From a virus (taxonomy: Duplodnaviria > Heunggongvirae > Uroviricota > Caudoviricetes): a stretch of 23,512 bases of DNA. The position numbers and the translations under genes were made by a program. Shown piece by piece: positions 5,061 to 10,009 of this stretch. Below the pieces are notes generated by a model, which ran no database searches, was not told the DNA's origin, and saw nothing but the letters and a program-made list of their open reading frames with translations. The stretch is taken from the IMG/VR virus record IMGVR_UViG_2531839455_000001. The stretch is one strand, 5' to 3'. Positions within the stretch are counted from its first letter, which is position 1. The number at the start of each line of letters is the position of its first letter.

Positions 5061-5423
5061 TTAACGACCTGCTGCGCGGAGTTTTCCGTCAGGTTCACCG
5101 GCAAGAGTCAGCAACTGTCCCTGGTCTTCCTGCAGAATAGTCAGGCGACCACCGCGATTGACATACATCGGCGTTTCGGTGGTGTCTTCTTCGGAAATTT
5201 TCCCGCGGTTAGTCGGGCGAACATATGAGAGTTTGTGTTTGATTTTCACTCGGTTCTCATCAAACGGTTCGATTTCTAGGTTGAGCGAGACCTTACCTTT
5301 GGTTTTCGTGTTCATCACACCGGAAGCGACTTCACTGAGAACTGCGCCGATTTTGGTTTCAAATACGCCGCCGTCCAGCTCCCCGATAAATGCCTGCACA
5401 TCAGTACTGCGTTCGCTAGCCAT
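5061..5423 (-). CDS. yfdP: Early prophage protein, YfdP-like (120 aa)
   Basis: Start at MASERSTDVQAFIGELDGG (ATG 5423) preceded by GAGGAG with 7-nt spacer; the upstream part of the 226-aa ORF is Arg/Pro-rich GC-rich read-through, judged non-coding. Confidence 0.7.
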   Translation of the reverse strand: MASERSTDVQAFIGELDGGVFETKIGAVLSEVASGVMNTKTKGKVSLNLEIEPFDENRVKIKHKLSYVRPTNRGKISEEDTTETPMYVNRGGRLTILQEDQGQLLTLAGEPDGKLRAAGR

Positions 5424-5892
5424 TTTGCTGCTCCTCATCATATCGACCCTGCAAGGTCGGTTAGTTTCTCCACAAAACAGAGAAGAACACCTGCGGTGAC
5501 TGCCGCCCGGATGGATTGGGTTATGAGCCCGTCGTCCGGTGATGCTCTTCTCTGTTTTGTAAAAAGGACGGTACCAGCCGGAAGCAAGGGTACAAGCTGG
5601 TACCGCCAAGACTACACACAGCATAAAGTTGTGGTGCCGGGTGCCTCCCGGTGCCTGGCGAAGGTTGCACACCAGGCGGGTGGGTATCCACAGAAGGTCG
5701 ACTGTCAGCCTCAACCTTAACCCGCGTGCGCTGAGCCGCATTCACCACAACGCTAAGGATTCTCTCTGGTTGAAAATACTTAGCTGTTATGTGCCTGCTT
5801 TTAGCCACATCAGGCGAGGTGGACCTAGTTATTCCCCAACAACAAGGATTCGGTTAATCTGGATATCCCCAACAACAATAAGAGTATTCAAT

Positions 5893-6408
5893 GTGATCGC
5901 TGAATTAACGGCAGCAATGACGGCTATTCGTGAAATCGCCCAGATTGCAAAACTAATGAACGAGGCAAAAACTCAAGCTGAAGTAAATGCGGCTATTGGT
6001 GAGCTGAACTCAAAGCTTGCGTCTATTCAGCGCGAATGCGTGTCTCTCGTTGAACTGCTGGGCTCTTATCAAGAAATAAATGCTTCTCTCAAAGCTAAAA
6101 TTGCAGAATTCGAAAACTTTGAGGCTCAGACGGAAGGCTATATCCTTAACCAACTTGAGTCGGGTACTTTTGTATACTCGAAGGAGGTAATCGTGAACGG
6201 TGACAGCATAACCATGCATCTTTGCCCAAAATGTTTTGGACAAAAGATAGTATCGATACTTCAACCATTCCCGGTTAGCGAAGATGAGCTTTTTCATAAA
6301 AGCAGGTGCCTCCACTGTGAAAATAAGTTTCTGATGAATAAAAATCCGGATTACGTATCGCCTCCATCCATTGAGGAGTTGGCCAGAAAACTTAACGGCA
6401 ATCTGTAG
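5893..6408 (+). CDS. Hypothetical protein: N-terminal coiled-coil-like, C-terminal Cys-rich (CPKC...CLHC) zinc-ribbon-like; moron opposing the leftward early operon
   Basis: Protein-like ORF; candidate starts GTG 5893 (AAGAG 8 nt upstream) or ATG 5917; rho-independent terminator follows at 6448-6470. Confidence 0.5.
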   Translation: MIAELTAAMTAIREIAQIAKLMNEAKTQAEVNAAIGELNSKLASIQRECVSLVELLGSYQEINASLKAKIAEFENFEAQTEGYILNQLESGTFVYSKEVIVNGDSITMHLCPKCFGQKIVSILQPFPVSEDELFHKSRCLHCENKFLMNKNPDYVSPPSIEELARKLNGNL

Positions 6409-6447
6409 ATTGCTACTGTTGTGGATATCCAGATTGTTAAAGAGCGA

Positions 6448-6470
6448 AGCGTCCTATAGGGCGCTTTTTT
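6448..6470 (+). terminator. Rho-independent terminator after moron gene
   Basis: AGCGTCC-TATA-GGGCGCT stem-loop (one G-U pair) followed by TTTTT. Confidence 0.5.
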
Positions 6471-6550: not shown

Positions 6551-6585
6551 GGTACATTATGTATCTCAAAGGTACATTGTCAAGT
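6551..6585 (-). promoter_or_regulatory. Putative leftward early promoter (PL-like) with operator half-sites (OL)
   Basis: On minus strand: -35 TTGACA, 17-bp spacer, -10 CATAAT; two TGTACC half-sites overlap the promoter, same core as the OR palindromes. Confidence 0.45.
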
Positions 6586-6622: not shown

Positions 6623-7297
6623 TTAGGCTTTGATTTTGTATCTTCTTGGTTTTCCTGAGAAAATCACAGTTCCAATTATAGAGCAATTACCGTTGATCTT
6701 AATGTAAGGCTCAGGCCAGTTTGGGTTTAACGCTTTGAGATAACGCTGTGTCCCATCTTCTATCAACCTTTTGAAGGTGGTTTCACCTGTATCGTGCATC
6801 AATGCAATAACGTCGTCACCGTGGCAGGCAGGTACTTCAGGATCGACAAAAATCATGTCTCCCGGGCGGTACTCATCAATCATTGAATCACCTATCACCC
6901 GCAAGATATAAGTCATTTCCCCACAGGGTACAGGGCAGGGATACGTTTCTGCTGTGCTCAAATCAACCTCAGAATATCCAACTTCTTTCCATGCTCCGGC
7001 CTGTACCCATGATATGACAGGGACTAATGTGATTTGTTTATTAGTGATTGAAACATCAGGTTTTTTTGTGATGTTCGTTGTCTGGTGTTCTTGATCGAGC
7101 CATCCGACAGGCAGGTCGAAACATTTTTCGATGTGTCGTGCCATGCTGTCACCGATATTTTTAGTAGCACCATCTCCCATAAACCTGCTGGTCTGGGTTG
7201 GCTCGCGATCAATCATAGTGGCAAAGGAAGAATTCCCGCCAACACCATCTCTCAGTTTTCTGGCGTTAGACCGCCGGATGTCATGGATTGTTTTCAT
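6623..7297 (-). CDS. cI: Phage CI/C2-type repressor (N-terminal HTH, C-terminal S24 LexA-like peptidase), 224 aa
   Basis: ORF MKTIHDIRRSNARKLRDG...; C-terminal region ...LRVIGDSMIDEYRPGDMIFVDP... typical of S24 autocleaving repressors; divergent from a cro-like gene with palindromic operators between. Confidence 0.85.
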   Translation of the reverse strand: MKTIHDIRRSNARKLRDGVGGNSSFATMIDREPTQTSRFMGDGATKNIGDSMARHIEKCFDLPVGWLDQEHQTTNITKKPDVSITNKQITLVPVISWVQAGAWKEVGYSEVDLSTAETYPCPVPCGEMTYILRVIGDSMIDEYRPGDMIFVDPEVPACHGDDVIALMHDTGETTFKRLIEDGTQRYLKALNPNWPEPYIKINGNCSIIGTVIFSGKPRRYKIKA

Positions 7298-9490: not shown

Positions 9491-10009
9491 ATGACGTTCA
9501 GAAATTCATTGAAGCCCAAAGATATTGTTGGTGTATGGACCGTATGTCACGGGCATATTGCACCGCCAGATATTCCGGCAGGCTTCGTGGCTGTTTTCAA
9601 CAGTGATGAGGCATCGTGGCATCTCGTTGAAGACCATCGAGGTAAAACGGTTTATGACGTGGCATCAGGGGACGCGTTATTTATTTCTGAACTCGGTCCG
9701 TTACCGGAAAATGTTACTTGGTTGTCACCGGAAGGGGAATATCAGAAGTGGAACGGCACAGCCTGGGTGAAGGATACGGAAGCAGAAAAACTGTTCCGGA
9801 TCCGGGAGGCGGAAGAAACAAAAAACAGCCTGATGCAGGTAGCCAGTGAGCATATTGCGCCGCTTCAGGATGCTGCAGATCTGGAAATCGCAACGGAGGA
9901 AGAAACCTCGTTGCTTGAAGCCTGGAAGAAGTATCGGGTGTTGCTGAATCGTGTTGATACATCAACTGCACCTGATATTGAGTGGCCTGCAATCCCTGTT
10001 ATGGAATAA
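9491..10009 (+). pseudogene. Tail fibre assembly (Tfa) gene remnant: conserved C-terminal portion only, fused to an unrelated short N-terminus
   Basis: ...[35 protein letters not shown]...[16 protein letters not shown]...[22 protein letters not shown] matches the recalled Tfa C-terminal domain; canonical Tfa N-terminus absent; no tail fibre gene upstream. Confidence 0.65.

Follow-up and report, generated by a model that had tools for sequence, protein, structure and literature searches.

The closest described relatives of the element reported here, a structured leader RNA on the minus strand of positions 5822-5424 in a 23,512-nucleotide (nt) stretch of viral DNA (Caudoviricetes; IMG/VR record IMGVR_UViG_2531839455_000001; the whole stretch is called the window below), are prophage-encoded small RNAs (sRNAs). 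DicF, from the Escherichia coli K-12 prophage Qin, is reportedly made by processing of an operon transcript together with termination, as Faubladier et al. are said to have found in 1990. sRNA-17 of E. coli K1 strain RS218, encoded by an mEp460-type prophage, was established as a 193-nt RNA by 5' and 3' rapid amplification of cDNA ends (RACE) and Northern blotting (Sun et al., 2020, Front Microbiol 11:574833; PMC7719688); its deletion raised yfdP ∼96-fold and yfdR as well, and its authors found no Rfam relative and did not describe the long helix (P1), the three-way junction (3WJ) or the relation to the dicF locus set out below (PMC7719688). STnc100 and its relative PasD are likewise prophage-borne, Hfq-associated sRNAs, usually located in the late region (bioRxiv 10.64898/2026.05.13.724894). 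In the window, the spacer between a moron gene and the yfdP start codon (positions 5424-5892; start codon at 5423) encodes on its minus strand a conserved, highly folded leader RNA of the early-left operon, modular over 5822-5424, within which the small RNA 5752-5561 is, as judged by alignment, the local allele of sRNA-17. We propose, with a probability of roughly 60%, that this structured leader contains a dicF-type small-RNA gene, that is, that a base-pairing sRNA is cut from transcripts and ended by an intrinsic terminator.

Modules were delimited in an alignment of the 520 nt upstream of the first early-left open reading frame (ORF), together with loci fetched from IMG/VR. An initial annotation of the spacer had pointed out a 15-bp inverted repeat and a 9-bp stem, both of which fall within the features found, listed here in the direction of transcription with the subdivisions of the 3WJ kept together:

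5822-5793, minus strand: start of the conserved block, CCACC and then the 5' hairpin GCCUG (5815-5811) / CAGGC (5797-5793)
5792-5771 / 5765-5746, minus strand: helix P1, 17-20 bp, ACAUAACAGCUAAG... / ...CUUAGCGUUGUG
5752-5561, minus strand: predicted small RNA of ∼192 nt, allele of sRNA-17 in the window, its core STnc100-like
5751-5628, minus strand: core of several hairpins, with closing helix GUUGUGGUG (5751-5743) / CACCACAAC (5636-5628)
5651-5637, minus strand: core hairpin CCGGG-AGGCA-CCCGG, loop invariant, stem covarying
5623-5608, minus strand: 16-nt single strand UGCUGUGUGUAGUCUU, candidate base-pairing seed
5607-5561, minus strand: intrinsic terminator, stem 5607-5596 / 5578-5567 and then CUUUUU, containing the 9-bp stem
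5561-5471, minus strand: 3WJ RNA, with stem H1 at 5561-5541 / 5491-5471 (19 bp, including the 15-bp repeat)
5539-5535 / 5511-5507, minus strand: H2 of the 3WJ
5530-5528 / 5520-5518, minus strand: H3 of the 3WJ, loop CUCAUAA
5506-5503 / 5496-5493, minus strand: H4 of the 3WJ
5531-5518, minus strand: CGGGCUCAUAACCC, 14 nt shared exactly with the anticodon stem-loop of initiator tRNA (E. coli K-12 metZ, L223:888-964)
5459-5444, minus strand: small hairpin CGACCUUGCAGGGUCG, before the yfdP Shine-Dalgarno sequence GAGGAG (5436-5431)

The comparison with RS218 was made via mEp460 (L010), to which all sRNA-17 primers map (L010 1655-1848, equivalent to 5752-5561 in the window); to judge from how the RACE primers and the Northern probe are oriented, sRNA-17 runs in the sense of yfdP. 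Both loci lie directly upstream of yfdP in a prophage of the SfV/mEp460 type, on the same strand and with the same ends, sharing the 5' end (C)GUUGUGGUGAAUGCG and the terminator UUGGCGGUACCAG...CUGGUACCG with its U run; the downstream 3WJ is ∼96% identical and the mEp460 flank more than 95% identical over 5609-5400. Identity fails over the RNA as a whole, good alignment being limited to ∼25 nt at the 5' end and ∼60 nt at the 3' end, and the middle hairpin is of STnc100 type in the window (CCGGGAGGCACCCGG), as opposed to CCGGAGAUCAGCACCGG in sRNA-17.

A scan of Rfam by E-value matched 5781-5558 (minus strand) to STnc100 (RF02076) with 43.4 bits, all of the model (1-206) being covered (E = 4.7e-8 when 701 nt are scanned and 1.6e-6 when the entire window is), and the terminator to DicF (RF00039) with 19.4 bits (E = 0.13). 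Gathering scores are 47 bits for STnc100 and 48 bits for DicF, and a scan of the window at gathering thresholds did not reach STnc100; sister alleles score 33-41 bits against STnc100 and 46.5 and 38.1 bits against DicF. The initial annotation could match the region to no family by eye, and relatives do exist in Rfam, although solely below threshold. Beyond the full-length match, the window shares with STnc100 the motif CACCGGGAGGCACCCGGCACCA, identical in the model consensus and in the copy of strain EDL933, the same closing helix, which covaries, and a 3' terminator. It differs in the 3' single strand and in its setting: STnc100 usually sits in the late region of lambdoid prophages, past Q and near stx or nanS-p, and the EDL933 copy indeed has Q/TerB on its upstream side and the SASA (nanS-p) esterase gene on its downstream side, whereas the copy in the window is early-left, between repressor/PL and yfdP.

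The minus-strand RNA 5830-5424 folds with -173.3 kcal/mol (z = -5.6 against dinucleotide shuffles) and the plus strand with -157.3 kcal/mol (z = -3.7), and the minimum free energy (MFE) fold agrees with the structure derived independently from homologues. G-U pairs are frequent (e.g., U21-G101 in 24 of the 26 sequences of the 3WJ alignment) and fit the minus strand alone, which points to a structure of RNA, not DNA, on that strand. Every helix covaries across homologous phages of Escherichia, Shigella, Salmonella, Klebsiella, Citrobacter, and Cronobacter, a comparison of paired arms that the initial annotation had itself proposed. Three of its suggestions are borne out: a structured RNA in the PL transcript, by a covarying RNA on the sense strand of the operon; a prophage sRNA, by homology to the experimentally mapped sRNA-17 (PMC7719688); and an RNA-processing element, by the long helices of the type cut by RNase III that enclose the region. 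The perfect 15-bp inverted repeat was found again (5472-5486 / 5546-5560, 59 nt apart) as the outer part of 25-nt arms that are 84% complementary (5472-5496 / 5536-5560), for which 15 perfect base pairs in 470 bp have by our own estimate a chance expectation of ∼1e-4; the 9-bp stem proved slightly longer, with 10 perfect base pairs (5569-5578 / 5596-5605) around a 17-nt loop. The raised GC content also noted there is real when compared with the moron and the yfdQ side (0.525-0.585 over 5400-5800, against 0.375-0.44), but the contrast is modest toward yfdP (0.495-0.51).

BLAST finds the region in mosaic pieces in 74 phage records, including SfV, SfII, SfIV, ST64B, mEp460, cdtI, Stx2, and phages of Klebsiella, Citrobacter, and Cronobacter, and a 501-nt query (5900-5400) has a match in 3087 of 5426 complete E. 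coli genomes. In every phage examined, the element lies between repressor/PL and the first early-left ORF, and there is no N gene between PL and that ORF. The 5' hairpin at the head of the block is conserved in SfV, sal3, phiES15, LLS, L076, and L114; in LLS it lies ∼25 nt past the PL -10 sequence.

Helix P1 persists while its sequence does not: the duplex energies of 10 variants range from -19 to -30 kcal/mol, compared with -13 to -18 kcal/mol for shuffled strands, and the central sequence is different in each of the 10, so pairing is maintained by covariation. P1 is a candidate RNase III-type processing helix, and C5752, the counterpart of the sRNA-17 5' end as mapped, lies within its 3' strand, which suggests that this end arises by processing and not by initiation. 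The loop of P1 carries an insertion of 80-100 nt in sal3 (L014), phiNP (L009), Kp4866-6 (L008), and Stx2a_WGPS2 (L011), with two hairpins that resemble tRNA T-arms, CUGGUUCGAUUCCAG and GUCCGUUCAAUUCGGAC; ARAGORN detected neither a tRNA nor a tmRNA in 11 homologous loci, these T-arm-like alleles included.

Within the small RNA, compensatory changes occur at 10 of the 17 predicted core pairs (16 cores, those of K-12 Qin and EDL933 STnc100 included), and the stem of the core hairpin is found as CCGGG/CCCGG, GGUGG/CCACC, and CCUGG/CCAGG. In one IMG/VR allele (L127 13595-13735), the conserved hairpin region contains a 7-nt tandem duplication, GGCACCCGGCACCCGGCACC. The candidate seed is unpaired in the MFE and centroid folds and identical in 8 of 10 alleles, with ST64B one base and sal3 two bases off, the BLAST alleles having been chosen without reference to it; the allele of mEp460 and Stx2a_WGPS2 is without 10 nt of it. 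The terminator hairpin is retained with at least five unrelated stem sequences, and the U run CYUUUUU always comes next. An enlarged terminator hairpin is seen in ST64B (L006 1660-1725), L022, L129, and L051, with a strong Shine-Dalgarno sequence, AGGAGGAAG, in the loop and a GUG or AUG codon from which a 50-66 codon frame runs through the 3WJ; this frame extends in ST64B to the yfdP ribosome-binding site, and in Kp4866-6 the aligned codon is ACG. In some phages the frame may encode a leader peptide; the window does not have it.

The 3WJ that follows has been undescribed until now. When 26 distinct homologues are aligned, 96.8% of the cells are paired, as compared with at most 57% for slid partners; 8 pairs have changed on both sides, the covariation score is 0.189 as against 0.03-0.05, and the MFE fold reproduces the structure. 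A U run lies directly 5' of the 3WJ in 106 of 109 distinct contexts irrespective of the gene that comes next, so the 3WJ belongs to the sRNA cassette and not to yfdP. Homologues hardly differ in the loop bases CUCAU, and positions 37-38 vary (AA, UA, UC). With its 19-21 bp the stem is a plausible second site of the RNase III type, but an internal loop that scarcely changes hints at a more specific partner. A tRNA or tRNA-like gene was considered and rejected, the likeness being confined to the 14 nt of the anticodon arm and the 11 loci being negative with ARAGORN. Downstream, the small hairpin before the yfdP Shine-Dalgarno sequence is swapped for GGCGGUGGCAGCCGCC in other alleles, its structure kept and its sequence changed.

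The window as a whole is a prophage remnant adjoining a tRNA gene (1369-1441, the sole Rfam tRNA match in the window), and the spacer is set among the following features:

Minus strand: an integrase, and the early-left genes yfdT/S/R/Q/P
6623-7297, minus strand: LexA-type repressor
6583-6556, minus strand: strong PL-like promoter past the repressor terminator, -35 TTGACA at 6583 and -10 CATAAT ending at 6556
6544-6471, minus strand: PL-proximal element AAACAACAAACAGGCAGGACGCCCACGAAGUAGCCCCCUGGAGCAUAUGAAGUCCAGGAUGAUUCGUU, 74 nt, directly after PL
5893-6408, strand opposite to the operon: moron, an ORF of 171 amino acids (aa) with its own terminator (6446-6467)

The moron (516 bp) is inserted between PL and the spacer. 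A 19-nt inverted repeat (5856-5874 / 6417-6435, 95% complementary) encloses its ORF and terminator, and some phages (L084, LLS, ST64B) are without the cassette, in L084 with the PL-proximal element directly abutting the 5' hairpin, so it looks like an inserted cassette with defined ends. At its left edge stand two 13-nt direct repeats, TCCCCAACAACAA (5833-5845 and 5866-5878), and the ORF itself has a weak Pfam match below threshold. Farther away, a tail-fibre-assembly ORF (9491-10009) comes directly after a replication-type helix-turn-helix gene, from which we conclude that the prophage is a deleted remnant. Rfam finds an IS009 RNA with its full score of 220.9 bits inside or overlapping this ORF (9768-9966, plus strand); PasB, considered as an identity for the element with IS009 nearby, was rejected, as PasB sits in a structural-gene operon.

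The PL-proximal element is unannotated in all records and is conserved at ∼29 distinct loci and in 47 phage records from nine genera (Salmonella, Escherichia, Shigella, Klebsiella, Yersinia, Citrobacter, Aeromonas, Pectobacterium, and Pantoea), after PLs of different immunity types and with covarying stems. In being structured, ∼70 nt long and placed right after PL, it resembles putL of HK022, a likeness of position only. A covariance model built from it found neither putL nor putR, and we therefore regard it as no more than a positional analogue of putL.

How else might the spacer be explained? The RefSeq/PGAP annotation places a "frameshifted hypothetical protein" at 5748-5438 (minus strand), seemingly the kind of conserved gene, frameshifted in this copy, that the initial annotation had named as evidence against a structured RNA, and a decayed protein-coding gene would also agree with the fairly open state of all three sense frames and with the Shine-Dalgarno sequence, start codon and 50-66 codon frame in the enlarged terminator loops of ST64B, L022, and L129. 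ORFs are indeed present where none had been thought credible (three of 95, 74, and 49 aa, besides one of 226 aa that extends yfdP in frame), yet none is gene-like: substitutions relative to six homologues have no codon periodicity (16/14/18, 14/10/13, and 21/19/19 by codon position), indels are mostly not multiples of three (1, 2, 20, and 25 nt), no frame is open throughout the region in ∼30 distinct homologues, and Pfam has no match for the three spacer ORFs. The region is therefore most likely non-coding and the PGAP call a propagated artefact. The 3' strand of the long stem is conserved in its nucleotides yet lies in three different frames in different phages, Kp4866-6 has ACG in place of the start codon, and compensatory changes and G-U pairs indicate selection on RNA pairing, all of which makes a decayed gene very improbable. 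Even less credit is due to an element acting as DNA, be it a site of recombination or attachment, the terminus of a decayed mobile element (both of which had been raised at the outset) or a decayed tRNA gene. The long inverted repeat, the mosaic boundaries within the region, the 14 nt shared with a tRNA anticodon arm and the hairpins resembling T-arms that other alleles carry in the P1 loop can be read in its favor, but on the opposite strand every G-U pair would turn into an A-C mismatch, the plus-strand fold is 16 kcal/mol weaker, the arms are held by compensatory substitutions across genera, the orientation is fixed relative to the operon, and the 11 homologous loci are tRNA-negative in ARAGORN. 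Antitermination, likewise suggested initially, would require a processive antitermination RNA of the HK022 put type or a nut-like site in which CCGGG-AGGCA-CCCGG serves as boxB for an unknown protein; the missing N gene, the invariant loop on a covarying stem, as in protein-binding hairpins, and the presence of the same core downstream of a Q-type antitermination gene in the late region of EDL933 are in keeping with it. However, scanning the HK022 immunity region with Rfam and by motif, and reading putL and putR directly, gave no put homology, the 9-bp stem belongs to an efficient-looking terminator and not to an antiterminator, an E-value Rfam scan of the whole window found a single copy and no second one downstream of PR, and the descriptions of STnc100 and PasD present them as free sRNAs bound by Hfq, so that we consider this role highly unlikely.

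A purely cis-acting leader, an attenuator or barrier for yfdP-int with the ∼190-nt RNA as a by-product devoid of trans function, is a possibility that we consider less likely, though not remote. Such a leader may shield a long untranslated region from Rho and RNases, with the 3WJ setting the translation or stability of the first ORF, and it would explain why all phages have the element between PL and the first ORF, why the 3WJ is linked to the terminator and not to any particular downstream gene, and why the core module is free to precede the seed or follow the terminator. It also fits the de-repression of the adjacent yfdP and yfdR by the partial sRNA-17 deletion, far above that of any distant gene, and the lack in the window of a seed target above shuffled controls. 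On the other side, the relatives STnc100, PasD (bioRxiv 10.64898/2026.05.13.724894), and DicF are abundant sRNAs that stand alone and associate with Hfq, sRNA-17 builds up as a distinct RNA species, and seeds usually look like the 16 nt found here, unpaired, immediately 5' of a terminator and preserved from genus to genus; action in cis is moreover compatible with action in trans and does not exclude it. A bolder idea, which we think doubtful, is that the PL leader of N-less lambdoid phages is an RNA-only control system composed of a 74-nt antiterminator, put-analogous and of a new class that modifies polymerase, an excisable sRNA and a tRNA-mimic 3WJ operator; if true, the 3WJ would gate translation of the first early gene by engaging either the 30S P site or a protein that binds tRNA-fMet.

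Several observations weigh against our proposal of a base-pairing sRNA of the dicF type. The central ∼100 nt of the sRNA-17 core do not align with the window, the published sRNA-17 allele is without the proposed seed (10 nt are missing), and the scores are below the gathering thresholds of STnc100 (43.4 < 47 bits) and DicF (19.4 < 48 bits). The sRNA-17 deletion covers L010 1681-1798 and leaves the terminator in place, for which reason its effect on yfdP is ambiguous and could be a cis or a cassette effect, and the trans targets reported for sRNA-17 (PMC7719688) are indirect. A consensus scan found no sigma-70-like promoter adjoining the element (only the PL-like site and two sites near or in the repressor gene), and the upstream sequences of five phages, inspected by eye, have no conserved -10 or -35; PL must thus read antisense through the 516-bp moron, and expression of the window allele in a lysogen is putative. 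Nor does the window hold a target for the seed, the best non-self duplex reaching -23.9 kcal/mol as compared with a mean of -24.0 kcal/mol for shuffled seeds. Hfq binding, RNase III cleavage and a role for the 3WJ are carried over by analogy, and, the prophage being a remnant, the element may be out of use in this genome.

With these points in mind, the course of events in a dicF-type small-RNA gene can be sketched. The architecture, the covariation, the homology to sRNA-17, the sub-threshold similarity to STnc100 and the build of the Qin locus described below underlie this sketch, and its remaining steps follow the examples of DicF, STnc100/PasD, and sRNA-17. Transcripts would arrive from PL (∼6550, antisense through the moron) or from a weak local promoter and would be cleaved within the 17-20 bp of P1, probably by RNase III, the new 5' end being tucked into the closing helix GUUGUGGUG/CACCACAAC. 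Most polymerases would halt at the terminator (5607-5561), leaving a stable RNA of ∼192 nt whose 3' hairpin and U tail have the usual form of an Hfq-binding sRNA and which would act in trans via UGCUGUGUGUAGUCUU, as DicF does via its own, different seed. Unless read through, the terminator would silence yfdP, yfdQ, yfdR ... int. The 3WJ, with its stem directly after the U run, would form solely in read-through RNA and would most likely be a second processing site, a stabilizer or a translational control for whichever ORF is first, and the PL-proximal element could account for passage of the terminator after induction.

Matches to the cassette are present in over half of complete E. coli genomes and also in phages of at least five other genera, where it is annotated as nothing or as a frameshifted pseudogene. 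For the most part it is a variation on known prophage small RNAs, to which two conserved RNA elements not described before, the 3WJ and the PL-proximal element, are attached. Three literatures so far unconnected, those on sRNA-17, on the STnc100/PasD family of Rfam and on the classical dicF locus, concern rearrangements of the same few modules, namely a processing helix, a core, a seed with terminator, and a structured domain after the terminator. A modular view offers a frame for predicting prophage sRNAs with swapped seeds and corrects a recurrent mis-annotation, and the terminator barrier offers an explanation in cis for the de-repression of yfdP and yfdR upon sRNA-17 deletion. Concrete, testable candidates for early-left control in N-less lambdoid phages are the 3WJ, one arm of which resembles initiator tRNA, and the PL-proximal element.

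Set beside the known systems, the leader differs from the put sites of HK022: neither the spacer nor the PL-proximal element has sequence or covariance-model similarity to them, and there is no second copy downstream of PR. At the lambda sib/tI site, read-through past a terminator forms a longer double-stranded stem open to cutting by RNase III, so that the fate of the RNA depends on termination; the comparison concerns a similar way of working and not homology, and cleavage of the P1 and 3WJ stems is putative. The dicF locus is alike in build. Like the window, K-12 Qin has an immunity-proximal leftward operon with a long helix of the P1 type, a short single strand, a terminator with GGCGGUAYCAG and an STnc100-like core, running (L135 2176-2586) from P1 through DicF, its terminator and the core to dicB. 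In the dicF-dicB spacer (L135 2451-2581) the core, GUGAUGUGGUGAAUGCGGCUGAGCGCACGCGG...CACCUGGAGGCACCAGGCACUGCAUCAC, comes directly after the DicF terminator, and the P1-type helix lies ∼200 nt upstream of dicF, helix and core both being unannotated in the K-12 record. The order differs, the core standing before the seed in the window and after the terminator in Qin; the downstream part is core and dicB in Qin and 3WJ and yfdP in the window, and the ftsZ-pairing DicF seed UUUCUGGUGACGUUU is unrelated to UGCUGUGUGUAGUCUU. A third arrangement (L029, L076, L086, and L114) has P1, at once followed by the same single strand as in the window and by a terminator that scores 46.5 bits against DicF, with the STnc100-like core after this terminator and before dicB (as in L086) or another first gene. 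Because the Qin and third-arrangement loci share this build, the cassette in the window can be placed as a rearranged member of a family of modules that includes the dicF locus.

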